A stretch of DNA of 32,000 nt from Nitrospinota bacterium (GCA_029881495.1 JAOUMJ010000020.1:22230-54229); one strand, 5' to 3'; positions 4,898-21,052 are shown, numbered from the stretch's first letter. Notes: generated by a model from the letters alone, not told the origin. Translations and numbers: made by a program.

Positions 4898-4955
4898 CAT
4901 CTTGGTGCAAAAAACACTCCAACCGGCACTTCTCAACTTGCATTTACGCTGATCT

Positions 4956-7900
4956 ATGGATGAGCGTCTTCACGTCTATCCCACACGCTTAAAGGTCGAG
5001 GAGGTCGAGGCCGAAAGGTATCGCTCAGCCGGGGCTGTTTTCAGCAAACACCTGATAAGCATTTTCGAATTGGAAGGTCGGCTCGCCCGCGACCTCGTGC
5101 CATATAATCCGATAAGCGAAGTCGAGAGATGGCTTCTCATCAATCAGTCGATAATTTCCGAAAAATCGCTCGGAAGGGATAGAGCGATGGCCCCCCTCAT
5201 ATCAAGTGACGGATTCGTAAGATCCGTTGGGGAATTGATCCAGCAGATAAAACTCGGTCTTGTCGATTCAGCCGATCTTGAAAAAATAAACGGGTTTGCC
5301 CCCGGCAAGGAGGGGTGGATAAAAAAGGTATTTGCCGCCTATCAAAAATTGCTTCGAACCGAGGGGCTTTACGATTCCGCGGATATCAGCATGGAGCTTG
5401 TCAAAAAACTCCATGACGGAGTGGCTCCTCCTGCATGGTTGAGGAGTTTCAGCGGAATTGATTTTTTCGATATCTATCACTACACACCTTTCCGTTTCGA
5501 AATGATTACCCGGCTTGCTGAAGTGGTAAATATAGTTGTTCATTTCCCGTTGCCGGATGAGAGGCGGAAGGCGTTTGATTTTGTGGAACGGGACATTCAG
5601 AAATTCCAGAGCCTGGCCGGTATGGAAGGGAAGCTTGAGCTTGCGTTTGATTCTCTCCCAGGAGACGATCCCGGGAATAAGAAAAAAACCGCGCTTGATA
5701 TCCTTGCAGGGCAGATATTCTCAGAAGAGGCGGGGGATGCCGAAGAGGAAATATCCGATAGCGTAGAGGTGGTAAAAAATTCCGGCAGATACCGGGAGAT
5801 AGAGGAAGTCGCCTCAAGGATAATGGATCTCAAGGAGAGCCGGAGGAGTTGGTCTGATTTCTGTCTTGTATTCCGCCAGACAGGGAGCTACGCGAATATA
5901 GTGGAAGATGTTTTCCGCCGCGCCGGGATACCTGTCTATATAAGACGCGGATTGCCCGTAAAGAACAATCTTCTTGTAAAGACGATTCTTGGAATTTTCA
6001 GGATAATCGAAACCGGGTATGACCGGGATGAAATAGTAAAACTTATGACTTCCGATTACTTCGATATCGGCCTCTCCCGTGAATTTGCGAGATATCTTGA
6101 AAAAATATTCATGGATGCCGGAATCATCAGCGGTCCTCCCTCCTTGCTGGAAAAGAAATGCGCCGCTTATTTGAAACGGGGCATTGAAATGGATGGTGTG
6201 CCGGTAGCGGCAGAAACAGTCGACGATATTTCCGCGGGACTAAAAAAGGTATTTTCCATACTGAAGGAAGTTGAAAAACTCTCCCGCGCATCGAAAGCGG
6301 GGGAGACCATAGCGATATTCAGGAAGCTGCTAAAAATATTTTCTCCCAGGGCGATCCAGTTCGGCTTCCCGTTCTTCACAAGAGACCTCTTCTGCAAGGG
6401 GAGGTTCTATGAAGTAGTGGAGGAAGCTGAAAATGCGGTCAAGGAGCATAAGCTGGGGGAGTCCCGCTTCGGATGGGGGGATCTAAGGAGGTTGCTTTTC
6501 AACTCGCTTGGAAACGCGGAGCTTCCCGAATGGTCTGAGAAGAATCATGTCTACGCGCTCAATATCCATGAGCTGGCAGGGAGGAGGTTCCCTTACATTT
6601 TTGTTTGCGGTCTGCACGACGGGGAGTTCCCGCTTAAATCGGAGCATGGGGCTGTGCTTTCAGAATCTGAAAAAAAGCTTTTCAATGAAAAACACTCTGA
6701 AACCGTCCTCGCCCGAATGGCCGAGAGGAAAATGGGGAGGCAGGTTTTCAGCAGGCTCGGAGAGACGTGGGACGAAGAATCTTTCCTCTTCTTTCTTGCC
6801 GTACGTTCCGCGAGGGAGAAAATATATTTTTCATACTCCACGCACGACCTGAACGGAAAGGAACTCGGCAAGTCGACCTTTCTTTACGATATAAAAACGG
6901 TCTTACCTGCGCTTGCCGAAACAGCGACGAGGTCTGTCGCGCTTGAGAAGGGATATTTCGAGCAGATAGACCACCCGGCGCGTGAGGCAAAGCTGTTGCG
7001 CGACATTTTCAATACGCCAGAGGAAAACGCCGGAGCGTTGGCTGATTACTACAGAAGCGTGGTTGGCCATCCGGTCACGGGAAAGAGTTTCATAAACTCG
7101 TGCGAAAGGAGCATGATAGAAAGGGAGCGGGACAAATTTTATTCGTCTGCCGAGCCTGACGTCCGGGCAAACGCGTCAAGCGTATATACCGGCAAGGTTG
7201 GGGAGATGCCATTGCTCTCGGGATACGTTGAGAAGGAAGCGCGGAAAGGATTTTCCGCAACCGCGATCGAGAGGTTTGCAAATTGCGCGTTTCGCTATTT
7301 CATGGACAGGCCGCTCCAGGTAAAGCCGCAGGAGCTGCCAAGGGCCGATATTGAAAGGACCGTGAAGGGGAGCATCGCGCATGAGATCCTAGAGATATAT
7401 TATGCGCCAAAGGGGAAATTCAAGGTTCGCTCATCTCTTGAGCCTCGAAATGCGAGGGAGAAAAGGTTGAACACCGTTGCCGAAAAGGTATTTGCAAAGT
7501 GGGAGAAGTCCGAACTGAAAGGGGAGCCTGCCATCTGGGAGATAACCAAGGAGCAGATAAGGAGGGCGCTCTCGCTTTATCTCCGCTCCGAAGAGACAGC
7601 GTTCGAAAAGGAGCCCTTCACTGTGGTGGCTACCGAATTGAAGTTCGGCCCGGATGAACCCTTCTCCGTATCATTAAAACTGCCGGGCGGGGAGATGTCT
7701 TTCAACGGCCTTATCGACAGGATTGATCTTCTGGACGCGAAAGGGATGCTGAGGGTAGTTGATTACAAATATTCGAGCAACACATCGAAGTTCTCAAAAT
7801 TGGTGAAGAGTGAAAAATATGGCGAAGAGAGTTTTCAGGTTCCTGTATATCTTCTCGCCGCGCTGAATTTGGCAGAAAGAAAGGAAGAGTTCTCCGAAAT

Positions 7901-8153
7901 CAAAACGGCGGTGGCAAGCTACATCACCTTGAAGAAGGAGCCGAAGGAATCGGCTGTATCGCCAACGGCCTCGCTGTCGTCGGGTGACGGCGATTTCTCC
8001 TTCGATAACGCGGAATTCCTCTCGAGGTTTGAGAATATCAGAACGAAGATGAATTCGGGCGATTTTTCCGTTACGCCGAAGGATTGTGTTTTTTGCAAAT
8101 ACCGAAGGGCATGCAGGTACAGAGAGGTTATGAGCGTTGAACTTGGAGAGTAG
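4956..8153 (+). CDS. AddB-like / PD-(D/E)XK-family nuclease of a RecBCD/AddAB-type complex
   Basis: C-terminal nuclease region 'SATAIERFANCAFRYF', 'GSIAHEILE', 'GLIDRIDLL...LRVVDYKYSSN' and cysteine cluster 'CVFCKYRRACRY' consistent with an AddB-type Fe-S cluster; immediately followed by an AddA-like gene. Confidence 0.8.
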   Translation: MDERLHVYPTRLKVEEVEAERYRSAGAVFSKHLISIFELEGRLARDLVPYNPISEVERWLLINQSIISEKSLGRDRAMAPLISSDGFVRSVGELIQQIKLGLVDSADLEKINGFAPGKEGWIKKVFAAYQKLLRTEGLYDSADISMELVKKLHDGVAPPAWLRSFSGIDFFDIYHYTPFRFEMITRLAEVVNIVVHFPLPDERRKAFDFVERDIQKFQSLAGMEGKLELAFDSLPGDDPGNKKKTALDILAGQIFSEEAGDAEEEISDSVEVVKNSGRYREIEEVASRIMDLKESRRSWSDFCLVFRQTGSYANIVEDVFRRAGIPVYIRRGLPVKNNLLVKTILGIFRIIETGYDRDEIVKLMTSDYFDIGLSREFARYLEKIFMDAGIISGPPSLLEKKCAAYLKRGIEMDGVPVAAETVDDISAGLKKVFSILKEVEKLSRASKAGETIAIFRKLLKIFSPRAIQFGFPFFTRDLFCKGRFYEVVEEAENAVKEHKLGESRFGWGDLRRLLFNSLGNAELPEWSEKNHVYALNIHELAGRRFPYIFVCGLHDGEFPLKSEHGAVLSESEKKLFNEKHSETVLARMAERKMGRQVFSRLGETWDEESFLFFLAVRSAREKIYFSYSTHDLNGKELGKSTFLYDIKTVLPALAETATRSVALEKGYFEQIDHPAREAKLLRDIFNTPEENAGALADYYRSVVGHPVTGKSFINSCERSMIERERDKFYSSAEPDVRANASSVYTGKVGEMPLLSGYVEKEARKGFSATAIERFANCAFRYFMDRPLQVKPQELPRADIERTVKGSIAHEILEIYYAPKGKFKVRSSLEPRNAREKRLNTVAEKVFAKWEKSELKGEPAIWEITKEQIRRALSLYLRSEETAFEKEPFTVVATELKFGPDEPFSVSLKLPGGEMSFNGLIDRIDLLDAKGMLRVVDYKYSSNTSKFSKLVKSEKYGEESFQVPVYLLAALNLAERKEEFSEIKTAVASYITLKKEPKESAVSPTASLSSGDGDFSFDNAEFLSRFENIRTKMNSGDFSVTPKDCVFCKYRRACRYREVMSVELGE

Positions 8154-11100
8154 CAGGGCAGAGGAGATAGTAGGGTTCGAAGGGGACACCTGCGTTCGCG
8201 CCTCGGCGGGGACGGGGAAGACCTTTATTCTCGTCGAGAAATTCATGCACATCCTGAAAGAGAAAACCGACGACAGTTATACGAAGATAGAAAATATCCT
8301 CGCGATAACCTTTACCGACAAAGCAGCGGAGGATATGCGGAAGAGGATAGGGGACAAAATATATGAAGAGGTGCGCGAGCTTGAAAAGCGGGAGAGAACA
8401 AAGGAAGAGGAAAAACTGCTAAGGCATCTTCGCACGGCAAGGAGGCTGTTGACGAAGGCGTACATCTCAACGATTCACTCCTTCTGCGCGAGGATATTAA
8501 GGGAGAATCCGCTGGAGGCAGGGATAGACCCGCAGTTTGAGATACTTGACGCGCAGAGGACTGGCGCGTTGCAGTCCAGATCGCTTGAACGTTTCCTTCT
8601 GGATAAACTGAGGAGAGGCGACAAGCCGGTTGCCGAACTTGCATACAGGTTCGGATTCGATTCGGATTTCGCGTTTGAGAGTTCGCTTTTCAGCCTCGTA
8701 TTGAGCCTCCTCCCTTTGATGAGAGCGGCGGGAGTAGATATTTTCTCCGAAAGGGCCTTGCTGTCCGAGTATTCGGAAAAGCTGGATGATGCTGAGAAAA
8801 TGCTTTCAGAACAAAAGAAGCAGTGTGCGTCCATTCTAAACGGGATGTCGGCTGAAATTTCAACCGAGAAACAGAAGGTGATAATGGAAATGCTTGTGAG
8901 TGGGATTTCCGCTCTTTCACCCTCAAGCGATATTGGGAATGAGGACACGCGGAAAAGCGTAAGCGGTATGAAATCTGCCATCAACCTGAATACCTTTAAA
9001 GGTAAAAAAGATGGCAATCTAAAGGCGCTGGCAACCGAGCTAAAAGAGACGCTGGAATTATATGAAATGACGGTTGTCTCTTCTCTCGCGCGTGAATCAG
9101 CCAGGCAGATAGCCGAGCTTGTCGGAGAGTTTTATCAGTACATGGAATCGTCCGTGAAGAACAGGGGCTTGCTTGATTTTGACGACTTGCAGGAGATGAC
9201 CCTCTGGCTTTTCAGGCGAAATGAAAGGATACTCGCGTATTACAGAAAAATGTTCCGCAATGTGCTGGTAGACGAGTTTCAGGATGTGAACGGTCTGCAG
9301 AAAATGATAGTGGAACAACTTGCCCCTCCCGGCGAAGGGAAACTTTTCGTGGTGGGGGACGTAAAGCAGGCGATATACGGATTTCGCGGGGGAGACCTTG
9401 AGGTGTTCGACGAAACCGAAAGAGCGATTGTAGAGAATGGCGGCGGGCTTTTCCGCCTGAATGTAAACAGGCGTTCAAATCCCGGTCTTGTGAAATTCGT
9501 GAACAGCTACTTCGGAAGATATGAGAAGAGCGTTTTCGACGCTGGTGATGAATGCGTATCTATGATGGATGAAACCGAAGTTTCGCCGGTGGAGTACTAT
9601 ACCTTCTCTGATGAAGAGAGCGCCGACAAGAGGCGGTTCAGCGAAGCAAATTTTATCGCGTCGCGAATAAACCGGCTGGTAGGTGAAAACAAGGCAAAGT
9701 TTTCCGACATGGCGATCCTTCTGCGAAAGTTTACCCCCCTCCCTATATACGAGGCCGCGCTTTCCCGGAATGGAGTGAGATACGCGGTACACAGGGGAAC
9801 AGGATTCTACAAGAGCCAGGAGGTGGCGGATCTTATTTCGATTCTCTCCTTCATTGATAATCCCGGCGACATAGTATCCTGGGTCGGCGCGGTGCGCTCC
9901 CCATACTGCGGATGTTCGGACAGGACCCTTTTCACGCTGAGGAGGGATGGTGAAGGAAAAACGGTCGAGCCGTACCGCCTCTTTTCAAGGGATGCCTATC
10001 TCCCCCCGCTTGATGAAGGGGAGGGGGAGAAATTCTCCGCCTTTGCGGAATGGGTCACTTTATTGATAAATCTGAAGGACAGGATGGCGGTATCGGAAAT
10101 AATCGAAACTGTTCTGGAAAAGAGCAGGATAACCGGCCTTCTTGGAGCGCAGAACGACGGTCTGCAAAAAGTTGCCAACGTGCTGAAGCTTATCGAAACC
10201 GCGAGGATGATGGAGCAGGAGCCGGGATTTACGCTGAAAAATTTCGTAAGGCACATCACGCGACTCTATGAACAGGAGGAGAGGGAATCCGAGGCAGTTG
10301 TCGTATCGGAAGAGGAGAATGCTGTAAAGATAATGACCGTGCATCAGAGCAAAGGGCTGGAATTCGGCATTGTATTCCTGCCGGACATTGGATCAAGCGG
10401 GAAGCGCGGAGGAGGATCGGCGATATTCCATAAGCGTAAAGGCTTGGCGGTAAAATATGTCGAGAAGGAAACCTTGTCATCCCATTCAGGGATCGTCTTT
10501 GAATCCACTAAGGAAGAGATAGAAGAAAAAGAGAAGAGCGACGCGAAGAGGCTTTTCTACGTCGGCTGTACCAGGGCGAAGGATATGCTGGTGCTTAGCG
10601 GATGCCCGGACCCGAAAAAGAAGAGGAGTGAAGCTTTGTCGGGCCTGGATGAATTGATGGAGCGCGAACCCTCCCTGTTCAATATCGTTTCCATACCCGT
10701 TGCAACTATGGAGGAGATAAGGGAACAGCGAACCCCATATGATGTATTGTCCGCCGGAGAAGAGCCGAAGAATACTGAATTGGGCAAAGGGGGCGAAGGG
10801 GTTGCGCCAATGGAACCCGCAGATGAAAGGAAAGAGGTCTTTGTCGATACAAGGAGCCTCGCCTCGTTCGCGAAATGTAAAAGGGAGTACATGCTTGGGA
10901 GATTGTACAGCGTGCCGGCAGAGAGGAGTTATCATGGCGGGCGCGGAGGGCGCAAGGGTGTTTACGAAGCGATGGAGATCGGCAACGCGATACACGCGAT
11001 TCTTGAAAAGCTCGATCTTGAGGTCCCGCAAGATGAAATGAGGACAGAAATTATCAAAATGGCGAAAAGGGAATTGCCTCTAGCATCAGAGGCGGAACTC

Positions 11101-11649
11101 CTGAAAGTTTCGCAAAAGCTGGAACGACTTTTTAAAACTCCGCTCTTTGAAAAAATTCGAAGCGGTGAAATGGAAGAAAAAGGGAGAGAGGTGCCGTTTA
11201 CTGCAAGATTCGGCAGGGATGGAGATGCATTTTTCCTCAAAGGGCAGGTCGATCTCCTGCTAAGGAGGGGCGAAACGGGGGTGATGATCGTCGATTACAA
11301 ATACGCTGTGAGGGGCGAAAGCGAGACGACTTATCGCTTTCAGGTGGAGGCGTACGCGGTTGCCGCGGAGCGCGTTCTCGGTGTCGAGGAGATCGTGTGC
11401 GCGATAGTCTATCTTGGCGGCGAAGAGCCGGAGTGTGTGGAATGGAAAATGGATACAGTGAAACTTCAAAAAGCTGAGGAGGCGATAACCGGTTCCATGA
11501 AAATGATTTCGGAGATGGAGAGGAGCCTTAGGGGAACTGAAGGGATACCCGACGCCGACTTTTCAAATATCCTTGGCGAGAGCGGAGCGGAAATAAAGTG
11601 TCCCGACGGAAACTGCGGCTATCATGCTGTCTGCTTCAGCGGTGAATAG
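8137..11649 (+). CDS. addA: UvrD/Rep-superfamily helicase with C-terminal nuclease, AddA-like
   Basis: Walker A 'ASAGTGKTFIL', 'AISTIHSFCARIL', Walker B 'LVDEFQDVNGLQ', 'FVVGDVKQAIYGFRGGD', 'KIMTVHQSKGLEF', 'RLFYVGCTRAKDMLVLS', nuclease motif 'GQVDLLLRR...MIVDYKYA'. TTG start overlaps the upstream gene. Confidence 0.87.
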   Translation: MNLESSRAEEIVGFEGDTCVRASAGTGKTFILVEKFMHILKEKTDDSYTKIENILAITFTDKAAEDMRKRIGDKIYEEVRELEKRERTKEEEKLLRHLRTARRLLTKAYISTIHSFCARILRENPLEAGIDPQFEILDAQRTGALQSRSLERFLLDKLRRGDKPVAELAYRFGFDSDFAFESSLFSLVLSLLPLMRAAGVDIFSERALLSEYSEKLDDAEKMLSEQKKQCASILNGMSAEISTEKQKVIMEMLVSGISALSPSSDIGNEDTRKSVSGMKSAINLNTFKGKKDGNLKALATELKETLELYEMTVVSSLARESARQIAELVGEFYQYMESSVKNRGLLDFDDLQEMTLWLFRRNERILAYYRKMFRNVLVDEFQDVNGLQKMIVEQLAPPGEGKLFVVGDVKQAIYGFRGGDLEVFDETERAIVENGGGLFRLNVNRRSNPGLVKFVNSYFGRYEKSVFDAGDECVSMMDETEVSPVEYYTFSDEESADKRRFSEANFIASRINRLVGENKAKFSDMAILLRKFTPLPIYEAALSRNGVRYAVHRGTGFYKSQEVADLISILSFIDNPGDIVSWVGAVRSPYCGCSDRTLFTLRRDGEGKTVEPYRLFSRDAYLPPLDEGEGEKFSAFAEWVTLLINLKDRMAVSEIIETVLEKSRITGLLGAQNDGLQKVANVLKLIETARMMEQEPGFTLKNFVRHITRLYEQEERESEAVVVSEEENAVKIMTVHQSKGLEFGIVFLPDIGSSGKRGGGSAIFHKRKGLAVKYVEKETLSSHSGIVFESTKEEIEEKEKSDAKRLFYVGCTRAKDMLVLSGCPDPKKKRSEALSGLDELMEREPSLFNIVSIPVATMEEIREQRTPYDVLSAGEEPKNTELGKGGEGVAPMEPADERKEVFVDTRSLASFAKCKREYMLGRLYSVPAERSYHGGRGGRKGVYEAMEIGNAIHAILEKLDLEVPQDEMRTEIIKMAKRELPLASEAELLKVSQKLERLFKTPLFEKIRSGEMEEKGREVPFTARFGRDGDAFFLKGQVDLLLRRGETGVMIVDYKYAVRGESETTYRFQVEAYAVAAERVLGVEEIVCAIVYLGGEEPECVEWKMDTVKLQKAEEAITGSMKMISEMERSLRGTEGIPDADFSNILGESGAEIKCPDGNCGYHAVCFSGE

Positions 11650-11694
11650 GGAAGAGCGTGTTTCATTCCTGCCGCGCAATGCGATAGGGTTAAG

Positions 11695-13614
11695 CTACTG
11701 GATATTGTGATGCTTTCCTTCGTGTTCGATGATGGAGATGCTCTTTGGGCTTTTCAGAAGCTCAATTGATCTCTTGCAGATCCCTTCGGGATGGAGGGCG
11801 TATTTTTTTCTGGCGCTTTCCTGCGTGGAGTGAGGAACAAAAAGATCGGGAATCCCGATAGAGGCGCCGGCGATCGAGCCGAGCCCTTTGGCGCGCAGCT
11901 CTTCAAAAACGCCGGATCCAAACCCGCCGATGAGTGAGTTCTCTTCTACCGTTATGATATTGCCGCAGTGCTTGGCCCATTTTGAGATCATCTCCATGTC
12001 GAGAGGTTTTGCGAACCTGGCGTTTATTACCGCCGCGGAAATATTTTCCTTTTCAAGAAGCGCGGCAGCTTTTACGGCATTCACGACGGCATTTCCTATG
12101 GCGCAGATCACGATATCGTCTCCCTCATGGATCAGCTCGGCCTTTCCAATATCGATTAACCTGTATTCCTGCTCCAGCGGGATCCCTTCCACATTGCCGC
12201 GTGGATACCTTATAGAAGCCGGGCCGTTATGGTTAGCGGCGGTGTACATCATGTGGCGAAGCTCGTTTTCATCTTTGGGCGCCATCAAGGTCATGTTCGG
12301 TGTTTCGCGAAGAAAGCTGATATCGAAAATGCCCTGATGCGTGGAGCCGTCGTCACCTACGATTCCCGCCCTGTCGATGGCAAAGGTCACGGGCAAATTC
12401 ATGTTACAGACGTCGTGGATCACCTGGTCAAAAGCGCGCTGAAGGAAAGTCGAGTATATGGCGACGACCGGTTTGAAACCGTCGGCGGCCAGCGCGGCGG
12501 CAAACGTGACCGCGTGCTGTTCGGAAATGCCGACGTCGAAAAACCTGTTGGGGAATTTTTCGGAAAATTCCACAAGGCCGGTTCCGTCTCGCATCGCGGC
12601 GGTGATGGCAACTATTTTTTCATCATGCTCGGCAAGATCCACAATAGTTTTTCCGAAAATTGAAGTGTATGTAGGCCTGCTTTTGGATTTTTTCTTTCCT
12701 GTGGCGATATCGAACGGCGAGGTTCCGTGGAACGGTCCGGGGTCGGCCTGCGCGGGTGCATAGCCAAGCCCCTTCCTGGTAATGACATGTATGATGCGCG
12801 GGCCTGAAAGTTTCCTTATTGCCCTAAAGGAATCTATGAGGGTTTCAAGATTGTGCCCCTCTATGGGGCCGAAATACTTGAAGCCGAAATCTTCAAATAT
12901 CCTTCCGGGAACAATAATACCTTTTACTGCCTCCTCCACTCTGTGCGCGAAGGTGGCCACCTGTTTACCGATACCGGGTATGAGAGAGAGTATGTGATCC
13001 ACCTCTTTTTTCATTTTGTTGTATGTCTCGCCGCTTATGATCTTGTTCAGATGTGCAGAAAGGGCGCCGACATTCTCGGAGATAGACATCTCATTGTCGT
13101 TGAGTATCACCATCAGGTTCTTTCCAAGCGCGCCTGCGTTGTTAAGCCCTTCAAAGGATAGTCCCGATGTCATCGAACCATCCCCTATGACGGCGAGTAC
13201 GTCATGCTTTTCCCCTCTCATGTCGCGCGCCGCGGCGAACCCGAGAGCGGCGGAGATGGATGTCCCCGCGTGACCGGTATCGAAGTGGTCGGACGGGCTC
13301 TCTTCCCTTCTTGGAAACCCGGAGAGACCACCTTCTTTTCGAAGTGTGTCGAACCTGTCGAGGCGCCCTGTCAGCAGTTTATGGCTGTAGCACTGGTGCC
13401 CCACGTCCCAAATGAGCTTGTCTTTTGTAAAGTCGAAAACGGCATGCAAGGCGACAGTAAGCTCCACAACGCCGAGGTTTGGCGAAAGGTGTCCCCCGTT
13501 TTCCGAGACGGTTTGAATGATCTTTTCACGAAGTTCCTGCGAGAGCTCTTTCAGTTCGCTCAGGGATAGACCCGCAATGTCGTCGTGTGTTTTGATATTA
13601 GGGAGGTGTTTCAT
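11695..13614 (-). CDS. dxs: 1-deoxy-D-xylulose-5-phosphate synthase
   Basis: 'LIWDVGHQCYSHKLLTGR', 'GDGSMTSGLSFEGLNNAG', 'RDGTGLVEFSEKFPNRFFDVGISEQHAVTFAAALA', 'GDDGSTHQGIFDISFLR'. Confidence 0.97.
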   Translation of the reverse strand: MKHLPNIKTHDDIAGLSLSELKELSQELREKIIQTVSENGGHLSPNLGVVELTVALHAVFDFTKDKLIWDVGHQCYSHKLLTGRLDRFDTLRKEGGLSGFPRREESPSDHFDTGHAGTSISAALGFAAARDMRGEKHDVLAVIGDGSMTSGLSFEGLNNAGALGKNLMVILNDNEMSISENVGALSAHLNKIISGETYNKMKKEVDHILSLIPGIGKQVATFAHRVEEAVKGIIVPGRIFEDFGFKYFGPIEGHNLETLIDSFRAIRKLSGPRIIHVITRKGLGYAPAQADPGPFHGTSPFDIATGKKKSKSRPTYTSIFGKTIVDLAEHDEKIVAITAAMRDGTGLVEFSEKFPNRFFDVGISEQHAVTFAAALAADGFKPVVAIYSTFLQRAFDQVIHDVCNMNLPVTFAIDRAGIVGDDGSTHQGIFDISFLRETPNMTLMAPKDENELRHMMYTAANHNGPASIRYPRGNVEGIPLEQEYRLIDIGKAELIHEGDDIVICAIGNAVVNAVKAAALLEKENISAAVINARFAKPLDMEMISKWAKHCGNIITVEENSLIGGFGSGVFEELRAKGLGSIAGASIGIPDLFVPHSTQESARKKYALHPEGICKRSIELLKSPKSISIIEHEGKHHNIQ

Positions 13615-14501
13615 CAGTGCGTCCTGCTCCCGATGAAGAGCGCAAGCTCTTCAAGCGGTTTTATGTTCCCCTTGAGATCCTTTAGAGCCGCTATCGCGTT
13701 AATGATCTTTTCCGAAGCAAGCTCGCGGGACCTGTCGAGTCCAAGAAGGGAAGGATATGTCATCTTGCTCCTTGCGTCGTCGCTTCCGGCGGATTTTCCG
13801 AGTTCTTCCGTATTCCCTGTTACGTCGAGTATATCGTCGACTATCTGGAAGGCGTGGCCGATATTCTCGCCGTACTTCGCGAGCGAAGCCAATTCGCGGT
13901 CGTTCGCGTTTCCTATCAGTCCGCCCGCCTTTACCGCGGCAATTATCATCGCCCCGGTTTTACGGGTATGGATGTATTCGAGCGTCTCCATATCACCCTT
14001 TTTCCCTTCCGATTCGATGTCTACCTCCTGGCCGCCGACGGTACCCTGCGCGCCGACTGCTTGGCCGACTATCCCTATTATTCTAATCATTATATCCGAA
14101 GGGATTCCAGAGCCGTTGGGAGGGGATTCGGACAGTATTTCAAACGCGAGCGTTAGGAGGGCGTCCCCCGCCAGGATAGCAGTGGCCTCGCCGAATTTTA
14201 TGTGATTTGTTGGGAGCCCCCGCCTGAGATCGTCGTTGTCCATCGCGGGGAGGTCGTCATGGATAAGTGTGTATGTGTGGATCAGCTCTAAGGCAGCCGC
14301 TGTCGGCAAGGCGTTCTTCCTGTTTCCGCCGACAGCTTCTGTCCCGGCGACCACCAGGCATGGGCGCAGCCTTTTCCCCCCGGCAAAAACGGAGTAGGAC
14401 ATCGACTCAAAAAGCTTTTTCGGGATGTCTTGACGGACATTGAAAATGCGCTTTAGTTCCGATTCTATCTCTTTTCGGATTTCTTTAAAATGGGAGTTCA
14501 T
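13614..14501 (-). CDS. ispA: Polyprenyl (farnesyl/geranylgeranyl) diphosphate synthase
   Basis: '[10 protein letters not shown]', first Asp-rich motif '[17 protein letters not shown]', second '[11 protein letters not shown]', downstream '[11 protein letters not shown]'; start overlaps dxs/xseB neighbours. Confidence 0.93.
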
Positions 14502-14745
14502 CCTGCTCCGATGTGGAGTCCGTTTCCATCTGTTGCGTGGAAAGATTTCCTTTCTGATCCTTTATGAGTTTTTCGATCTTTTTTTCGGCGCCGGAAAGCT
14601 GGCTCTGGCAAACCTGCGCCATCTGGATACCTTCCTCGAACATTTTCAGGGATTTCTCAAGTTCCAGTTCTCCCCCCTCAAGCTGAGAAACAATCTCTTC
14701 CAGCTTTTGAAGGGCTTTTTCGAATTTTACCGTTTCCCCTGCCAT
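14485..14745 (-). CDS. xseB: Exodeoxyribonuclease VII small subunit
   Basis: '[55 protein letters not shown]'. Start taken at MAGETVKF (14745) rather than the longer track ORF. Confidence 0.92.
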
Positions 14746-14851
14746 GCGCGTATTATATCCCTTTCGCCGGGAATTGGAAATGTCGTAAAGGGGCAAATAG
14801 ATGTATTTTCAGCCGCTTTTCAGGGTATGTTCCGTTAATCGGTGACTGCGA

Positions 14852-16987
14852 TCAGTAGCGGATCTCGGTCGGGTCGGAAGGGGCGGCCTTCTGCTGAGGG
14901 GTCTTGTCGAGGTCTTCCATGGAGAAGGCCCCGCTCTTGAGGAATCCGCGCACCCTTGTAACAACCGCGATCTTTGCCTGATCGACTTCCGCGACCGTAG
15001 CGTCCTTGGCAACGATCTTGTATTCGTCGCGCACTATCCTTCTTGCGTCCTCGTTGAGTGCCGAAAGTATCGCCGTCTGCACGTTCTTGTCGGACTGTAC
15101 AAGGGATTTGGCGATGGTGCTTCTCTCGAGATCCCTGATGGAATCCTTCAGCACGTTTCTCGGCACCTTCGGAATGTCGGTGAACGTGAAGTAGACCTTC
15201 TTTATCAGGTGGTATGTCTCCGGGTCCTCGGACTTGAGATGTTCGAGGAGCGTTGTCTGCGACGACATATCCATGAAGTCCATCATGCTGACCATGATGC
15301 CGACGCCATCGGCGGTAATGTTTTCAAGGCTTGGCACATCAATCGCCCGTCTGGCGATCCTCTGCGCAACCGGCTGGAAGGCGTTTATAGGTATGCTCTC
15401 GAATTTCGCCAGCTCGTACGCAATTGACGCCTGCTCTTCTATCGGAAGGTTTTTCAAAACCCCGGCCATCCTTTCCGGTGAAAGTTGCGAGAGAATGAGA
15501 GCCTTGACCTTTATCTCCTCCTCCTTGACGAGATAGGTTATTTGCGCTTCATCCAGATCGTTTAGGAAGCTGAACGGTTTTACTTTCTGCTTTTTGGCTC
15601 CGTGATCTTCCATCAGTATCTTTCTCATGGTGTCGTCGTGGAACCTCTCAAGGTACTGAACGGTTTCTTCCTCGCCGATCTCCTCTTCCTTCATGACGGT
15701 TTCTATCTCTATCAGCCTATCTACCGACAGCTCGCTGAAGATGCTCTTGCCGAGGTTGAAGCCGAGCACAGAGAAGAGGATGGCGGCCTTTTTCACGCCC
15801 TCACTGCTCTCAAGCTCTTCCTTTATCCTGCTGTTAAGGAGCCTCGGTTTGCCTACACCGAGGCTGACGATCTCCTGCTTGTACTGCTCTTTTTTCATCT
15901 GGAGCTTCAGGAGTTTTTTCTCCTCATCGATGAGCCCTCTCCTTTTCTCGGCTTCGCTTAGGGATTCTGATTTCTCCCTGGCTATTCTCTGCGCTTCGGC
16001 CATCTTTTCCTTTCTGAGTTTTCGCGCGGCGGACCAATTACGAAAAAAAATTCCGAATATGGTTACAAGCATCAGCAGAAGCATTATGCCAAGGAGCGCT
16101 ATGGCAAGATTTTCCCATTTCCTGTCGTCCATTGGAACTTTCTCTGCCGGGAAATCTATCTTTATGACTTCAAAGCCGTCCCCTCTGGTGACGTCCATGT
16201 CGAGCTTTTTGTAAACGAGGTTCTTAATGAATGATTCCTGCTCGCTCGTAATATTCCTGTCGACCATGAAGGTAACGAATATCTTCCTGATTATTTTTTC
16301 AATCTCCTGCTTCGTCTCCCGGACTGGAGGCGACTGAACCGGCATCGGCAAAACAGGCTGCTGTTGCTGAACAATCGTCGCGGCAGGCGGGATGAATGTC
16401 TCATCGGTAGTTACCGTCCTTTTCTGTCCCGGCGCTCTTCCTGTATCGTCTTCCATATCTTCATCGCCGAAGTCCGATCCGAGATCCGAAAAGGGGAGGC
16501 CCGGAAGTGTTTCGCCAAAATCGTCGCCTGACGCAAAGTCTCCTGAATCCTCCCTTGTCACTCTCCGTTTGATGAACCTGTTTTGCTGGAACTGCTGTTC
16601 CGGTGTGAGAACAGGCTGGAACTGGGTGACTGAAGTCTGCGGAGCCAAAGGCTGTTGCTGTATCTGCGATTGTTCCTGCGCAAGCGGCTGGGCTACCGGC
16701 TCCGGAGCCTTAGGAGCGATCGTCTCGGTTTTTGAGTCGAATATTTCAGCGTCGACCCTCAGGATGAAACGGGAATGACCAAGGTATGACGATATATCCC
16801 GGCTTAATCTCTCCTCGACCCGTTTTTCAAAAACAATTCCGCCGAGTTTGTCTTCTTCGAGTGTGGTTTTTACTTCATCCTGGGCCAGGGTGATTCCGGT
16901 CGAGGTGAGAAAGAATACAAGCGCACTGAAGAGGAAGAGCCCCCTTCCGTTCACCCATCTATTTTTCATAATCGTCATATTTTCCAT
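14852..16987 (-). CDS. FliF(C-terminal half)-FliG-like chimeric membrane rotor protein
   Basis: 711 aa. Signal/TM near the N-terminus; FliF-like split segments 'YLGHSRFILRVDAEIFDSKTE' (aa ~68-88) and 'IFVTFMVDRNITSEQESFIKNLVYKKLDMDVTRGDGFEVIKIDFP' (aa ~236-280); TM 'NLAIALLGIMLLLMLVTIFGIFF' (aa ~293-315); FliG-like N/M/C region aa ~393-690 ('GVKKAAILFSVLGFNLGKSIFSELS', 'KALILSQLSPERMAGVLKNLP', 'DPETYHLIKKVYFTFTDI', 'RDEYKIV...EVDQAKIAVVTRVRGFLKSGAF'). Confidence 0.8.
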   Translation of the reverse strand: MENMTIMKNRWVNGRGLFLFSALVFFLTSTGITLAQDEVKTTLEEDKLGGIVFEKRVEERLSRDISSYLGHSRFILRVDAEIFDSKTETIAPKAPEPVAQPLAQEQSQIQQQPLAPQTSVTQFQPVLTPEQQFQQNRFIKRRVTREDSGDFASGDDFGETLPGLPFSDLGSDFGDEDMEDDTGRAPGQKRTVTTDETFIPPAATIVQQQQPVLPMPVQSPPVRETKQEIEKIIRKIFVTFMVDRNITSEQESFIKNLVYKKLDMDVTRGDGFEVIKIDFPAEKVPMDDRKWENLAIALLGIMLLLMLVTIFGIFFRNWSAARKLRKEKMAEAQRIAREKSESLSEAEKRRGLIDEEKKLLKLQMKKEQYKQEIVSLGVGKPRLLNSRIKEELESSEGVKKAAILFSVLGFNLGKSIFSELSVDRLIEIETVMKEEEIGEEETVQYLERFHDDTMRKILMEDHGAKKQKVKPFSFLNDLDEAQITYLVKEEEIKVKALILSQLSPERMAGVLKNLPIEEQASIAYELAKFESIPINAFQPVAQRIARRAIDVPSLENITADGVGIMVSMMDFMDMSSQTTLLEHLKSEDPETYHLIKKVYFTFTDIPKVPRNVLKDSIRDLERSTIAKSLVQSDKNVQTAILSALNEDARRIVRDEYKIVAKDATVAEVDQAKIAVVTRVRGFLKSGAFSMEDLDKTPQQKAAPSDPTEIRY

Positions 16988-16994
16988 TTTACCA

Positions 16995-17669
16995 TTACCG
17001 GTGTATTTTAATTACCACTCTGCGGTTCTGCATTTGATTTTCCGCAATAGCGTTTCCAAGTTCATCCCTGTTTGGAGCCTTGGGCGCGATGTCGGCAAAC
17101 CCGGAAGCCTGCAGTCTCTTTTTTTCAATACCGAATTCGATAAGCATGCGGAGCACGTTTGTAGCCCTCGCGGTCGAGAGCTCCCAGTTGGAGGGGTATT
17201 TCACAGTATTGATAGGAACGTCGTCCGTATGCCCCTCCACCGAGACCTTGTGGTCGTCGTATGAGATCACTTTCAGCGATTTGGCTACCTTGTCGATGAT
17301 CGGTCTCGCGGTATCCATTATCTCCGCGTCGCCGGACAAAAAGAGGGCGGCGCTGGAGAATTCCAGCTTTATACCCTGTGCGGAGAGGTCGACCATTATT
17401 TCCTTTTCCAGGTTTTCCTGTTTAATCATCTTGTCCAGCTCGTTTTTCAGTTCATGGAACGGTTTTGTAACCTTCTTTTTGCTAACCGATTCAATAAGTC
17501 CGGCTTTGACCTCTTCATACTTTGAAGCATCTACTACCGATATCGCGGCAAGGAGAATGAAGAAGGCGAGGAGCAGGGTGACCATGTCCGAATAGGTGGT
17601 CATCCATGTTCCTTCCTCCGATTCTTCGGATCTCCTTCTTCCGGGAGAGCCGCTCTTGTTGAAAGCCAT
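16995..17669 (-). CDS. motB: MotB-type stator protein with OmpA-like peptidoglycan-binding domain
   Basis: 'TWMTTYSDMVTLLLAFFILLAA' (Asp in the plug/TM motif YxDMxTLLLxFF), C-terminal 'VSVEGHTDDVPI...NWELSTARATNVLRMLIEFGIEKKRLQASGFAD...QNRRVVI'. MotB-like; the symbol reflects family, not proven flagellar role. Confidence 0.9.
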   Translation of the reverse strand: MAFNKSGSPGRRRSEESEEGTWMTTYSDMVTLLLAFFILLAAISVVDASKYEEVKAGLIESVSKKKVTKPFHELKNELDKMIKQENLEKEIMVDLSAQGIKLEFSSAALFLSGDAEIMDTARPIIDKVAKSLKVISYDDHKVSVEGHTDDVPINTVKYPSNWELSTARATNVLRMLIEFGIEKKRLQASGFADIAPKAPNRDELGNAIAENQMQNRRVVIKIHR

Positions 17670-17694
17670 TACCTGTTCCTTTTAATGTTTTTCA

Positions 17695-18474
17695 TTACCT
17701 GCCGCTTTTCTTTCTGCTGAACCGCTTTTTTGGCTCAATGAAAGAGTTGAGTTTGTTTTCAACGAATATGGGGTGCTGTTTTTCCGCCAGTAGGAGTATC
17801 CCGTTCATCTGTATTACTCTCACCAGCACCTCGTAATCGGTTCTTCGCCTTATTTTTTCCGCTATCGGCATGAACAGCAGGTTCGACAGGAGGGTTCCGT
17901 ACAACGTCGTAGTAAGGGCTATCGCAAGTGCGGGCCCTATTGTAGAAGGGTCTTCCCCCATCTGCTGAAGCATGATTATAAGGCCTACGAGGGTACCGAT
18001 CATCCCAAAGGCAGGCGCGTACGATGCCATAACCTTGAACATGCTGTACTGCCCCTGCTGGGCGTCCACCATCCCTTCTATCATGTTTTCCAGGTTGGCC
18101 TTGATCTCATCTCTCTTGTACCCGTTGATAAGGAGCATGAGACCGTCCTTTTCAAATGAATTTTTAAGCTTGAGAGCTTCGTCCTCTATCGCGGAGAGCC
18201 CCTTGCTCTTTATGATCTCCGCCCACCGCGCAAACCTCGGAACAAGGTTTGTGTATGTGGTGTCATGCGACATGAATATCTTGTATACCGACAGGAACGA
18301 GCGTTTGACGTCCTCGTAGGGGAACGCGATGAATGTCGAGGCAACCGTTCCCCCAAGGACAATCGCGAAGCCCGGCATATTTACAAATACCAGGTACTCT
18401 TTCGTACTGCTTACGATAGCGGCGACGAATATCGCGATACCGGCAATAAGTCCGATCAAGGTTGATATTGACAT
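17695..18474 (-). CDS. motA: MotA-type stator/proton channel protein
   Basis: Four TM segments, 'PGFAIVLGGTVASTFIAFP', 'YAPAFGMIGTLVGLIIMLQQMGEDPSTIGPALAIALTTTLYGTLLSNLLFMPIAEKI'. MotA/PomA family. Confidence 0.93.
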   Translation of the reverse strand: MSISTLIGLIAGIAIFVAAIVSSTKEYLVFVNMPGFAIVLGGTVASTFIAFPYEDVKRSFLSVYKIFMSHDTTYTNLVPRFARWAEIIKSKGLSAIEDEALKLKNSFEKDGLMLLINGYKRDEIKANLENMIEGMVDAQQGQYSMFKVMASYAPAFGMIGTLVGLIIMLQQMGEDPSTIGPALAIALTTTLYGTLLSNLLFMPIAEKIRRRTDYEVLVRVIQMNGILLLAEKQHPIFVENKLNSFIEPKKRFSRKKSGR

Positions 18475-18475
18475 A

Positions 18476-19153
18476 TCAGTACCCCATTTCCTCTAGTTTG
18501 CGTCTTACGTCATTCATGGAAGGGTCGTGCTGAAGCGCCGCTTGCCACGATTGAACCGCCAGATCGAGCTTCTTCATCCTGTAAAAGATGGAGCCTTTCA
18601 GCGCGTGCGCGTAGGCATAGTCGGGGGCTATCAGCAGGGCCTTGTTCACTTCCTTCAAGGCGAGCGTGTACCGCTTCTTATAGAACTGTCTCTGCGCCTT
18701 GTTCAGATGGTTACTTGCCCTGTTGAAAGGGGATTGCGCCTCCGACGGCTCGCCGGGGGAAATCGCTACATCCTCCTCCGGAATGTCCATCTGCACAAAT
18801 ACGTTCTCATCGCCGGGGTCGATGTTCATCACGATGTCGTAACTTCTCCCCTTTCGCCTTATCTGCACGGTTTGGGGCGAGCGCGTGGCAAGAGTATCAT
18901 CTGCCGCCGCCCCTTGTTCGTTTGCTCCGTTCCTCTGCGGCTCGAGATTTATCGGCAGGTCGCCGGTATCCTCTCCCTTGCGGGCGGCCTCTTCCCTGGC
19001 CGCCTGTTTCACCATATCCTTTGTAGAGGAGCAGGCTGTAAGGGGGGAGAATGCAAATAGCAATATGGAGGCGGGGAGGATAACATGGGCCATAACCGCC
19101 CTTGCCAAGTTTGACCGCCATACAGTTTTCATCATTTCAATCACCTTGTTCAT
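18476..19153 (-). CDS. Lipoprotein with TPR-like repeats
   Basis: Signal sequence ending in a lipobox 'SPLTAC|SSTK'; helical repeats 'RASNHLNKAQRQFYKKRYTLALKEVNKALLIAPDYAYAHALKGSIFYRMKKLDLAVQSWQAALQHDPSM'-type pattern. Confidence 0.8.
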   Translation of the reverse strand: MNKVIEMMKTVWRSNLARAVMAHVILPASILLFAFSPLTACSSTKDMVKQAAREEAARKGEDTGDLPINLEPQRNGANEQGAAADDTLATRSPQTVQIRRKGRSYDIVMNIDPGDENVFVQMDIPEEDVAISPGEPSEAQSPFNRASNHLNKAQRQFYKKRYTLALKEVNKALLIAPDYAYAHALKGSIFYRMKKLDLAVQSWQAALQHDPSMNDVRRKLEEMGY

Positions 19154-20470
19154 TTAAAAAACAAATCCGATACCGACTTCATACGTCGTTCCGCCAAAAT
19201 TGATATGCGATTCGAAATCGCCGATAGGCACCAGTTCGATCCTCTTTTCAGGGATATTCACAAATCCCAGAGAGAAGGAAAAGCGCTCGCTGAATCTAAG
19301 GGTCAGGCCGCTCTTATAGATTTCGGTGTGGTGTTTCATGAACAGCGCCTCGCCAAGGGAGACGTAGTAGTTCCATGTGGAGAAATATTCCTTCCGCAGA
19401 TTTTTTTCATCTACCGGCTCGTATCCCTCACCGGAGAAGAATATCTTGTCGAGCTTTAGGATAAGGTGCCCGTAAAATGCCCCTCCCGCAATGTCGAAGA
19501 ACTCGGGCCTTACGATATTGGCGAAATAATCGAGCCCAACGCCGTATATGATATGTTTGGAGTTCTTCGATTCTCTCAATACCTTGAGGCTAAGAGTAGC
19601 CACCTTGTCGAGATGCTCTGCTGGGAGAGTGGCGGACTTTCTCTCATATTTGTAGCCCCATATGCCGGTCTCCAGAGCAACTTCGTACGGGCGGAGTTCC
19701 TTTTCCTCTTCGATCTCCTCAAAGATGTCCTGGAACTTTCTCGCCCATACGACCTCCCCTGTCTTTGCGTCTACGACCTTGAAATTGAGAAACAGCTTGT
19801 CGTTTTCAACATATACGTTCCAGAGGAAAAAGCCGTCGACCTTTATGTTCTTTGCAATTTCCGCGAGCCGCTGGTTCGATTCCACGGCCCTCAGGATGGT
19901 GAACGTGTTCTCCTTGAGGATGAGCTGGGTCGATTTGCACTCCATGCATTCGAATATCTGGAACCTGCCGGTTTCAAGAAGTTTGCGTGTTAGCCCGTTC
20001 TCGATAAGCTCGTATATCTTCGCTGGCAGCATTTTGTTCTGCTTGTCGGCGTTCCGGTAAAGGGCGATCTTGTTCACGCGCGGACTGATAGATAAAAGTT
20101 CCTCTTTCGAGAAATTCATCGCCATGATAAGCGTCTGAACACGTTCGTAGAGATTCGGGTTTCGCGTCTGCTCAAAGGCCTCACCTGTGAGGAGGCTTTT
20201 TACCGGCTGTCTGTTCCCAGGCTGCGGTGTTGTCCCGGGGAGAGGCGCGGTATCGTCGAATACGGTTTCATCCTGCGGAAGCTCAAGTGGCTCACCATCC
20301 GGTGGAAGCTCGTCTTCAGGCGGCAGTTCTATACTCTTCACCGGTTGAAAGTCGGGTGATGCACCCGCCGGAGGCTCCTGCGCGTATGACAGATTGGCCA
20401 CTAAAAGCGCAAACAATATCGCTGACAACCAGGTATATCTACCCAGATGCAAAACTTTGACGTATTTCAT
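19154..20470 (-). CDS. Secreted outer-membrane-associated protein with CsgG/FlgO-like middle domain and probable beta-rich C-terminus
   Basis: Signal peptide 'YTWLSAILFALLVANLSYAQ'; Pro/Glu-rich linker; 'ELIENGLTRKLLETGRFQIFECMECKST...LAEIAKNIKVDGFFLWNVYVENDKLFLNFKVVDAKTGEVVWARKF'; C-terminal alternating strands 'SGLTLRFSERFSFSLGFVNIPEKRIELVPIGDFESHINFGGTTYEVGIGFVF' ending in Phe. 1-nt gap to the next gene. Confidence 0.6.
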   Translation of the reverse strand: MKYVKVLHLGRYTWLSAILFALLVANLSYAQEPPAGASPDFQPVKSIELPPEDELPPDGEPLELPQDETVFDDTAPLPGTTPQPGNRQPVKSLLTGEAFEQTRNPNLYERVQTLIMAMNFSKEELLSISPRVNKIALYRNADKQNKMLPAKIYELIENGLTRKLLETGRFQIFECMECKSTQLILKENTFTILRAVESNQRLAEIAKNIKVDGFFLWNVYVENDKLFLNFKVVDAKTGEVVWARKFQDIFEEIEEEKELRPYEVALETGIWGYKYERKSATLPAEHLDKVATLSLKVLRESKNSKHIIYGVGLDYFANIVRPEFFDIAGGAFYGHLILKLDKIFFSGEGYEPVDEKNLRKEYFSTWNYYVSLGEALFMKHHTEIYKSGLTLRFSERFSFSLGFVNIPEKRIELVPIGDFESHINFGGTTYEVGIGFVF

Positions 20471-20762
20471 TCATTTATCCCTTCTTGCGTCAAAAAGTAT
20501 GCAGTAATCATTCCAATATTTGAAAATCCCGGAAAAATAACCACATAGAGAGAGGGGAGCGTTAAAAAATTGACGTAAATTCCCTTTTTTACGTAGGAAA
20601 CTTGCTCCAGTTTTATCTCCTTAAAAGAAGCGAGGAGGTGGTGACAATCTCTACAAAAGCGAATTTTCCAAAATTGTGAGGCCAACCTACAAAAAATGTA
20701 GGATATATTTCTCCCTAAACTGAGCATCTTTCTCCCTTTGGTTTGAATGAAACGTAACATAT

Positions 20763-20768
20763 TATAGC
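20763..20768 (-). promoter_or_regulatory. Possible extended -10 element upstream of the motor operon
   Basis: Minus strand reads TTGCTATAATATG (TGnTATAAT). No good -35; about 300 nt upstream of the 20470 start. Confidence 0.35.
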
Positions 20769-21052
20769 AACAAAAGAGCCTTCTCCGCACCCGGCTTCTG
20801 GAAGCCGTTTTCACCCGGTTTGTCGCGATCTTTTCCGAATTTGCCATAGCTGAATAAAGTCTCCCTATAAGCGAGCCCTCGCTGTTCTTTCAAGTCGATG
20901 AGCGAAAATTGCTCTCAACAGCTAGTATACTATTACTGGTAAACAGCGCATTCATGGCAATGAAAATTTGCCCGGGATCTGGAGAAACCGAGTAAATAGA
21001 TCTTTCGTTCTGGAAAATTGAAATTTAACAATTCGAAGAGGGGGGTGGCAAA

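Follow-up and report, generated by a model that had tools for sequence, protein, structure and literature searches.

Five contiguous genes in a Nitrospinota contig

A 32,000-nucleotide stretch of a contig from a Nitrospinota bacterium (GCA_029881495.1, JAOUMJ010000020.1:22230-54229; this whole 32-kb stretch is hereafter called the window) contains, between positions 14852 and 20470, five open reading frames (ORFs) packed head-to-tail on the minus strand, which encode proteins of 438, 225, 259, 224 and 711 amino acids (aa). A first-pass annotation made from the sequence had described five back-to-back genes for a candidate envelope-spanning, ion-driven machine, and the genes do lie where it placed them, separated by gaps of 0, 1, 25 and 7 nt in the order from the 438-aa to the 711-aa gene. 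This close spacing suggests that they form one operon. The genes and their products are as follows:

19154-20470, minus strand: 438-aa envelope protein (signal peptide, alpha/beta domain, eight predicted beta strands)
18476-19153, minus strand: 225-aa tetratricopeptide-repeat (TPR) lipoprotein (lipobox, TPR_2/TPR_1)
17695-18474, minus strand: 259-aa MotA/PomA-type stator A subunit (PF01618, PomA alignment)
16995-17669, minus strand: 224-aa MotB-type stator B subunit (MotB_plug, OmpA)
14852-16987, minus strand: 711-aa FliF(RBM3 to C-tail)::FliG(N-M-C) fusion, putative rotor subunit (family profile, Foldseek)

At NCBI these products are named, in the same order, hypothetical protein, hypothetical protein, 'MotA/TolQ/ExbB proton channel family', 'OmpA family' and hypothetical protein. 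The 438-aa protein, called the barrel protein below for its predicted strands, is 100% identical to hypothetical protein OEY64_09440 of Nitrospinota bacterium, encoded on a 362-kb MAG (metagenome-assembled genome) contig, and the fusion is hypothetical protein OEY64_09420. The domain matches given below for the other four proteins are far stronger than chance would produce.

The MotA and MotB proteins

The 259-aa MotA matches PF01618 (MotA_ExbB) at E=7e-24 and aligns end to end with the NCBIfam MotP, PomA and MotA models, in each case below the equivalog cut-off. When it was searched against the Protein Data Bank (PDB), all ten matches were flagellar stator A subunits, with Vibrio PomA first (4e-41, residues 1-251), and no ExbB or TolQ structure was found at E<=1e-3. 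The protein has the cytoplasmic charged patch (aa 87-99, nt 18178-18216) and the motifs APAFGMIGT (aa 153-161) and FMPIA (aa 201-205), in which both catalytic-cycle prolines are present. At the torque interface, R88 of PomA is replaced by K and E96/E97 by E/D. Across the related loci described below, whose MotAs are 21-36% identical to one another and to PomA, the E96 equivalent is acidic in nearly all cases, R88 is K/R in 5/9 and P151/P199 are kept.

The 224-aa MotB matches MotB_plug (1.1e-17), OmpA (1.6e-15) and the NCBIfam MotD, MotS and MotB models. It consists of a transmembrane (TM) helix with the channel residue Asp28 (nt 17586-17588, YSDMVTLLL), a plug helix and an OmpA-like peptidoglycan-binding domain; its best PDB matches are MotB and PomB (1.5e-30), with …YSDMVTLLLAFFILL… aligned to …FSDTITLLLTFFILL…. 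An extended torque-generating domain, together with the plug/OmpA architecture, marks the flagellar rather than the Exb/Tol type of stator, generic transporters being devoid of these features (PMC12505986). Since the two proteins have both, they would by these criteria be of the flagellar ('FIT' clade) type. The stator claimed by the first-pass annotation is thus borne out: as judged by homology, MotA and MotB make up a PomAB-like ion-conducting stator, predicted to be gated by its plug and anchored to peptidoglycan via its OmpA-like domain.

MotAB-type motors are also used by Zorya-like anti-phage systems. MotB does match the ZorB models (7e-22), as any MotB would, but MotA has no ZorA match, there is no ZorC, ZorD or other PADLOC hit, and the genes stand in a housekeeping context with no defence island. 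As PADLOC gave this cross-hit of a ZorB model to MotB and nothing for the other four proteins, we rejected the defence reading, which we regard as very improbable.

A separate observation concerns the coupling ion. Within nt 17896-18018 of MotA (aa 153-193), Thr occupies the sites that correspond to PomA T158 and T185/T186 (…MIGTLVGL…, …LTTTLYG…), residues that assist Na+ binding in Vibrio; Thr is also found at the T158-equivalent position in most MotAs of the related loci. From these residues, the motor may be sodium-driven.

The 711-aa protein

Pfam and NCBIfam recognize FliG_M (1e-11) and FliG_C (6e-17) in residues 481-688 of the 711-aa protein, and Pfam reports a weak YscJ_FliF_C match (0.022) that corresponds to the second half of the third ring-building motif (RBM3) of FliF; the same domain is recorded for the homologue in one related locus (L011). 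Two profiles were built, one from 52 members of the family and another from N-terminal halves only. The 52-member profile retrieved FliG structures at 3e-44 and residues 221-558 of Salmonella FliF at 5.4e-15. The N-half profile alone found FliF at 7e-9, with a residue-level alignment of three segments: residues 50-85 of the window protein pair with the first helix and strand of FliF RBM3, residues 232-280 (…VTFMVDRNITSEQESFIKNLVYKKLDMDVTRGDGFEVIKIDFP) with FliF '…SVAVVVNY…LTADQMKQIEDLTREAMGFSDKRGDTLNVVNSPF', and residues 377-395 with the C-terminal FliG-N-binding helix of FliF. The RGD…F ending of FliF RBM3 is covered by the alignment, and the tail of the FliF-like part, GVGKPRLLNSRIKEELESS, aligns to the FliF C-terminus 'DNDPRVVALVIRQWMSN', which is the FliG_N-binding segment in flagella. 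The domains map as follows:

16718-16840, minus strand (aa 50-90): first half of RBM3, helix and long beta strand (aligns to FliF 229-270)
16316-16717, minus strand (aa 91-224): Gln/Pro-rich low-complexity insert at the position of the FliF beta-collar (predicted disorder, composition)
16493-16507, minus strand (aa 161-165): invariant LPGLP motif within the insert
16148-16315, minus strand (aa 225-280): second half of RBM3, with a FliF-like …RGDGFEVIKIDFP ending (aligns to FliF 'IERLSVAVVVNY…KRGDTLNVVNSPF')
15803-16108, minus strand: TM2 (aa 294-316), charged helix and FliF C-tail-like segment (aa 377-395, GVGKPRLLNSRIKEELESS) (hydropathy, structure model)
14906-15802, minus strand: FliG N-like (aa 396-465), M (aa 469-552) and C (aa 560-694) domains (Pfam, Foldseek)
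15017-15055, minus strand (aa 645-657): torque helix NEDARRIVRDEYK (FliG_C)

The AlphaFold2 (AF2) model of the fusion has a mean pLDDT of 65, with values of 80-90 in the folded parts. It comprises a helix (51-69), a strand (74-90, pLDDT ~80), a disordered stretch (91-224), then a strand (225-242), a helix (248-261) and a strand (271-276), followed by a TM-plus-long-helix element (288-379) and three helical domains. In this model the N-terminal half is an RBM fold with a long beta-hairpin stalk. Foldseek aligned the model with full-length FliG (3hjl, 9.5e-11) over 318 columns, a length that implies that the FliG N domain is included, and with FliF RBM3 ring structures (prob 1.0). Profile and fold thus agree on the FliF/FliG chimera that had been proposed, and we conclude, as judged from sequence and model, that the protein is a true FliF::FliG fusion, homology showing a single chain that runs from FliF RBM3 through TM2 and the FliG-binding tail into a complete FliG.

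Within the family, E58 is invariant. The Gln/Pro-rich loop varies in length, and LPGLP is its only fixed feature: in the 52 sequences L161 and P162 are invariant and G163 nearly so, and an LPGxP motif followed by a TM segment occurs in 108 of 156 family members. Neither RBM1 nor RBM2 was found in the fusion, the match to FliF starting at residue 221 and ~15 residues separating the N-terminal hydrophobic segment from RBM3. An RBM3-type ring-building fold with an insertion is also known from the sporulation ring protein SpoIIIAG, which the family profile matches weakly (E=0.021); SpoIIIAG has no FliG and no stator, and belongs to another cellular context.

FliG interfaces kept and lost

To count residues at the functional positions of FliG, 146 family members were aligned to T. 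maritima FliG. Of these, 139 have R/K at the torque-helix position that corresponds to E. coli FliG R281, and at D288/D289 most carry an acidic residue or Ser. The MFxF hinge retains its last Phe in 124/146 (the window has YFTF, nt 15182-15193), and the GG of FliG is replaced by DG in the family. As for the FliM-binding motif EHPQR, its Glu (E125) is kept in 133/146 and the H, P, Q and R positions are variable, the window having EEEIK in place of EHPQ (nt 15497-15526). The conservation of the R281 equivalent and the loss of EHPQR indicate that the contact with the stator is kept and that with the switch complex is gone. Genes for FliM, FliN, the rod, the hook, the filament and type III export, which the first-pass annotation had noted as missing from the five-gene set, are absent from the whole 32-kb window.

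The two envelope partners

The 225-aa protein starts with a hydrophobic leader that ends in a lipobox, LTAC (aa 38-41, nt 19031-19042), followed by Ser, and has TPR repeats at ~aa 147-218 (nt 18500-18715; TPR_2 1.2e-7, TPR_1 2.8e-7); below threshold, it resembles TPR lipoproteins of the PilW/Tgl/NlpI type. The 438-aa protein, for which no Pfam or NCBIfam match was found, has a signal peptide (…LSYA|QE) and an acidic linker rich in Pro and Glu; its periplasmic alpha/beta domain (~aa 106-247, nt 19730-20155) contains CMECK at aa 175, and its C-terminus (aa 262-438, nt 19157-19687) has eight predicted beta strands and ends in …GIGFVF. In Foldseek searches with a low-confidence model, which nonetheless shows consistently an alpha/beta domain and then eight strands, the alpha/beta domain matched TolB (2e-4), the LpoB C-domain (3e-4, prob 1.0), PelC (8e-3, prob 1.0) and GNA1162, and the strands gave weak matches to Ail/OmpX/OmpA/NspA. 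Because of its signal peptide, its …GIGFVF ending and the eight strands of the low-confidence model, the protein is probably located in the outer membrane, which is the weakest label of the five. Of the full coverage of the envelope that had been claimed for the gene set, the TPR lipoprotein, MotA/MotB and the domains of the fusion thus stand, and the outer-membrane placement of the 438-aa protein is a prediction.

The TPR protein, the barrel and the PelC match (prob 1.0) would also fit an energiser or scaffold of an outer-membrane export route of the PelB/PelC type (TPR, PelC-like domain and beta-barrel). We consider such a role decidedly improbable: a polymer pore calls for a larger barrel than one of eight strands, the neighbourhoods inspected have no conserved glycosyltransferase, polymerase or secretin, and the PelC match comes from a low-confidence model.

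Family size, gene order and selection

An exhaustive profile search with the fusion found 399 proteins at E<1e-30. The best 150 matches are all full-length (~570-780 aa) and each represents one cluster at 50% identity, so that the family comprises at least 150 such clusters. A word-indexed protein search found far fewer (12 for the fusion, and 4-5 for the barrel protein), and scans of species-representative genomes with a single protein or with a five-sequence alignment found no relative, the back-translated patterns used there being so specific that the result has little bearing on absence. At JGI, relatives of the fusion are labelled 'FliG'.

The first-pass annotation had proposed a search for conserved synteny, and the five-gene set does recur, in shuffled order, in distant lineages. 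Seventeen further loci were inspected beside the window. The order barrel-TPR-MotA-MotB-fusion is shared by the window and L023, a 79%-identical relative; the order is barrel-TPR-fusion-MotA-MotB in L006, L009, L011, L013 and L018, and fusion-barrel-TPR-MotA-MotB-DUF5723 in L003 and L012. In L001, MotA-MotB is divergent from TPR(SPOR)-barrel-TPR-fusion; L022 has MotA-MotB-barrel…fusion, and L002 a more divergent set with other partners. Orthologues of the barrel protein were found in L001 (2e-49), L006 (1e-23), L011, L013, L018, L022 and L023, to which profile comparison added L012 (prob 99.9) and L009 (N-domain, prob 89); those of the TPR lipoprotein, with matches of 1e-9 to 1e-23, in L001, L003, L006, L007, L010, L011, L012, L013, L014, L018 and L023. 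As judged from these sequence matches, the partner genes are orthologous across loci, beyond a likeness of type. In the related loci with Pfam annotation, no other flagellar family is on record.

Several loci carry additional genes. In the Bacteroidota versions, a DUF5723 protein (4e-29) is encoded directly 3' of motB (L003 5709-6713, L012 5712-7223) and is a possible sixth, lineage-specific component. L001 encodes, just upstream of the barrel gene (4419-5507), an extra protein with TPRs and a SPOR domain (4e-5; septal peptidoglycan binding), which may point to a connection with the division site or cell wall. L010 has, at 8048-13746, a TPR gene, an unknown gene and the fusion, then a Sel1-repeat protein with a weak likeness to Vibrio MotX that stays below threshold (1e-12, 48 bits; cut-off 330). 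The 17.9 kb of this locus contain no motAB, and dxs is nearby, as in the window. Finally, the MotB of L002 (GCA_013558375.1, JACCDG011542058.1) is 479 aa in length and extends far at its C-terminus; the locus also has two unrelated partners, with a serpin gene next to them, and may be a contig of bacterial origin in the assembly of a eukaryote or a metagenome (>1.5 million contigs by numbering).

Remnants of flagellar genes are known in non-motile lineages (PMC12199754), which raises the question of whether the cluster is the decaying, functionless relic of a lost flagellum. All five ORFs are intact, however, and the dN/dS ratios between the window and L023 (barrel protein 0.045, fusion 0.041) are like that of the flanking aldo-keto reductase (0.048); for the TPR lipoprotein, MotA and MotB, dN is 0.04-0.14 and dS is saturated. 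Moreover, different phyla have retained these five genes, specific non-flagellar partners included. On dN/dS, and as far as sequence evidence goes, we rejected the relic reading, to which we give hardly any credence.

Hosts and relation to flagella

The five-gene set occurs in at least three phyla, represented by Nitrospinota (the window), a Thalassolituus MAG (L013) and Bacteroidota contigs. The PpnN of L013 is identical to that of Thalassolituus sp. MAGs, and L011 is syntenic with L013; Thalassolituus is a flagellated genus. In L012, a SusC/RagA gene (781 bits, cut-off 368) is followed by a SusD-like gene, and a neighbour in L004 has a T9SS type-A sorting domain; this SusC/SusD pair, the sorting domain and the DUF5723 proteins of L003 and L012 identify the contigs as Bacteroidota. 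The Nitrospinota core genome generally encodes flagella (PMC5029188), and Bacteroidota are missing the genes for the filament, the C-ring and the MS, P and L rings (PMC12199754). Carriers free of flagella, which the first-pass annotation had suggested looking for, are thus found at the level of the phylum. Judged by the taxa concerned, the cluster would be present alongside flagella in some hosts and without them in others, which is the pattern expected of an independent machine, 'non-flagellar' being deduced from the family rather than from the window's own genome.

The flagellar type of the stator and the flagella of Nitrospinota and Thalassolituus would agree with the cluster providing an accessory or alternative rotor/stator, e.g. 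a second motor type, for the host's ordinary flagellum. Against this stand the observations that the cluster never adjoins flagellar genes in the annotated loci, that it is present on Bacteroidota contigs and that it has its own conserved, non-flagellar partners. In addition, a fusion devoid of RBM1/RBM2 and of the FliM-binding motif could neither seat the export gate nor join the C-ring. We therefore hold a role in the ordinary flagellum to be improbable. The suggestion that the set is used for something other than a canonical flagellum is, by contrast, favoured at the sequence level by the family-wide loss of the FliM-binding motif, by synteny and by the Bacteroidota contigs.

A candidate rotor–stator machine and its alternatives

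Taken together, the data make it fairly probable, in our judgement, that the set specifies a rotor–stator machine complete in itself, independent of the flagellum and spanning the envelope. By analogy with FliF RBM3, FliG and SpoIIIAG, copies of the fusion would assemble into a ring in the inner membrane; engineered FliF–FliG fusions are reported to assemble rings (PMC6079021, PMC11481574). The torque helices of the FliG C-domains would face MotA, with pentamers of MotA driving the ring at the conserved Arg/acidic interface, and the flow of ions (H+ or possibly Na+) through MotAB would turn or push it. Having no RBM1/RBM2, such a ring could not seat an export gate and, with no FliM-binding site and no FliM/FliN, it would carry no switch. 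More speculatively, the beta-hairpin stalks might form a periplasmic collar with flexible Gln/Pro-rich loops tipped by LPGLP, and these loops might connect it with an outer-membrane module, composed of the TPR lipoprotein and the LpoB/PelC/TolB-N-like barrel protein. By this route, ion-motive energy from the inner membrane could act on the outer envelope, as torque or as force, and not on a filament; candidate tasks are surface movement, remodelling of the outer membrane or cell wall, and transport.

Several points weigh against this reading. The ring, its rotation and the contact of the fusion with the two outer-envelope proteins are deduced from homology and models, the AF2 model of the fusion is that of a monomer (pTM 0.27) and that of the 438-aa protein, built from 5 sequences, is of low confidence (pLDDT 50). 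In the clade of the window (the window and P0001-P0004), the R281 equivalent is Asp/Glu, with Arg-Arg two to three residues later; the Asp indicates that the rotor–stator interface may be rewired there by a charge rearrangement. Two loci, L010 and L019, have no adjacent motAB. The Nitrospinota and Thalassolituus hosts are normally flagellated, and a link to the flagellum may exist in them. Finally, a ring tethered to outer-membrane proteins may be unable to rotate freely.

A serious, likewise non-flagellar alternative is a non-rotary force transducer of the Tol-Pal/Ton type, in which MotAB would pull the FliG domain and the Pro/Gln-rich periplasmic arm would reach an outer-membrane partner, for the purpose of envelope maintenance or cell division. 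The partners do look Tol-like (a small TPR protein, cf. CpoB/YbgF, a TolB-N/LpoB-like domain and a Pro/Gln-rich periplasmic stretch), one relative has added a TPR protein with a SPOR domain, a septal-peptidoglycan binder, and all known non-flagellar 5:2 motors are reported to be force transducers (PMC9389320). However, TolA and TonB engage their motors by a TM helix and not by a cytoplasmic FliG torque helix, and the periplasmic part of the fusion is the ring-building, FliF-homologous RBM3 rather than a TolA/TonB C-domain. MotB, moreover, retains the flagellar plug and OmpA domain, which are absent from generic transporters (PMC12505986). Pfam and NCBIfam searches likewise gave no sign that the set belongs to Tol-Pal: the TolQ model matched MotA at 0.04, and TolA, TolB-propeller and Pal domains were not found, which leaves the TolB-N/LpoB-like fold match of the low-confidence model as the sole tie. 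We consider the force transducer unlikely, though less so than the other alternatives.

A bolder proposition is that the rotor–stator machine represents a separate class of ion-driven rotary envelope organelle, in which stators of the flagellar type spin a ring of FliF::FliG that is geared to a complex in the outer membrane, and which would be either a surviving cousin of a pre-flagellar rotor–stator module or an ancient exaptation of it, common among bacteria of the sea and of sediments, some of them from phyla in which flagella never existed. This we put forward tentatively, as a conjecture that may well prove wrong.

Comparison with known systems

The set resembles the flagellar motor's core in its homologous stator, in the RBM3, TM2 and FliG-binding tail of FliF, in all three FliG domains, and in the conserved Arg of the torque helix and the acidic and proline residues of MotA. 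It differs from that motor in that FliF and FliG are joined in a single polypeptide, which has neither RBM1/RBM2 nor EHPQR and in which a low-complexity LPGLP loop takes the place of the beta-collar; FliM/N, the export gate, the rod, the hook, the filament and the L/P rings have no genes nearby, and two unrelated envelope partners are conserved instead.

The nearest published item is the FliF–FliG fusion of Chlamydiaceae (Bergeron 2016, PMC4768692), likewise a natural fusion of a shortened FliF with a FliG-like cytoplasmic part, in bacteria without flagella. The chlamydial protein is shorter (~330 aa), and has an RBM2-like region, not RBM3, and a FliG-M-like region only; no MotAB is described along with it, and its proposed role is with the injectisome (PMC4768692), whereas the window fusion has RBM3, a full FliG and its own MotAB. 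The engineered Salmonella and Vibrio fusions mentioned above are end-to-end chains as well, but they are laboratory constructs with full-length FliF inside a complete flagellum (PMC6079021, PMC11481574).

An inner-membrane, ion-driven motor of the MotA/MotB family coupled to periplasmic or outer-membrane partners is also found in TolQR-TolA-TolB-Pal-CpoB, ExbBD-TonB, GldLM/T9SS, AglRQS-Glt and ZorAB, and the TPR protein and the TolB-N/LpoB-like domain recall Tol-Pal/CpoB in particular. The motors of these systems belong, however, to the generic (Exb/Tol-like) branch, without the flagellar torque interface and plug/OmpA (PMC12505986), none of the systems uses FliG or FliF, and no equivalent of TolA, TonB, GldM, ZorC or ZorD was found among the window proteins (Pfam, NCBIfam, PADLOC). 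The parts belong to known protein families, and the system as a whole falls outside the flagellum, Tol-Pal and Zorya; it is best described as an ion-driven 5:2-motor envelope machine with a flagellar-type rotor–stator core. In a search of full-text literature, the coverage of which leaves out most subscription journals, no account of a system combining MotAB with a membrane-anchored FliG was found.

FliG and the flagellar-type MotAB stator are regarded as hallmarks of the flagellum. With three of the five proteins named 'hypothetical' at NCBI and relatives labelled 'FliG' at JGI, the present annotation could mislead genome-based prediction of motility. If the proposed machine is real, it would add a new output to the short list of ion-driven rotary or force-generating machines (flagellum, Ton, Tol, Gld/T9SS, Agl, Zorya) and provide a natural minimal rotor for structural and biophysical study. 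It would also make an old debate testable, namely whether a rotor–stator module is useful without a type III export apparatus; were it a new rotary class, 'half a motor' would have a use of its own.

Other features of the window

The suggested operon runs on into the genes xseB-ispA-dxs, which begin 55 nt downstream of the fusion gene, and the rest of the window is made up of housekeeping genes: grpE-dnaJ, two BatA/VWA genes, addAB-like helicase-nucleases, cytochrome c peroxidase, pabB-like genes, dnaK and dut. Two neighbours are listed here as ordinary genes unrelated to the five-gene set:

2262-4234, minus strand: two adjacent BatA-N/VWA-domain proteins (aerotolerance-operon type)
4956-11649, plus strand: AddB/AddA-like helicase-nuclease pair (1065 and 1170 aa)

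An Rfam scan of the window gave no match, and in the promoter and terminator scan the number of promoter-like sites was not above background. The top sigma-70-like match of the region (14752-14780, minus strand, TTTCCA-17-TATAAT, 10/12) coincides with the opening codons of xseB as listed (ORF 14485-14796) and lies 72 nt downstream of the fusion stop (14852). From its place inside the xseB start, the true start of xseB may be further downstream, and xseB-ispA-dxs may have its own promoter despite its closeness to the five genes.

At the other end of the set, a 126-aa ORF (20467-20847, minus strand) overlaps the start of the barrel gene by 4 nt. Its counterpart by position in L023 (1342-1743, 133 aa) is called as a gene; the two are 37% identical, with a dN/dS of 0.49 against ~0.04 for the operon genes. 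The final ~35 residues of the 126-aa ORF are hydrophobic and fairly conserved (…VNFLTL…IFPGFSNIGMITAYFLTQEGI), and it could encode a small membrane peptide with a later start or correspond to a conserved leader region.

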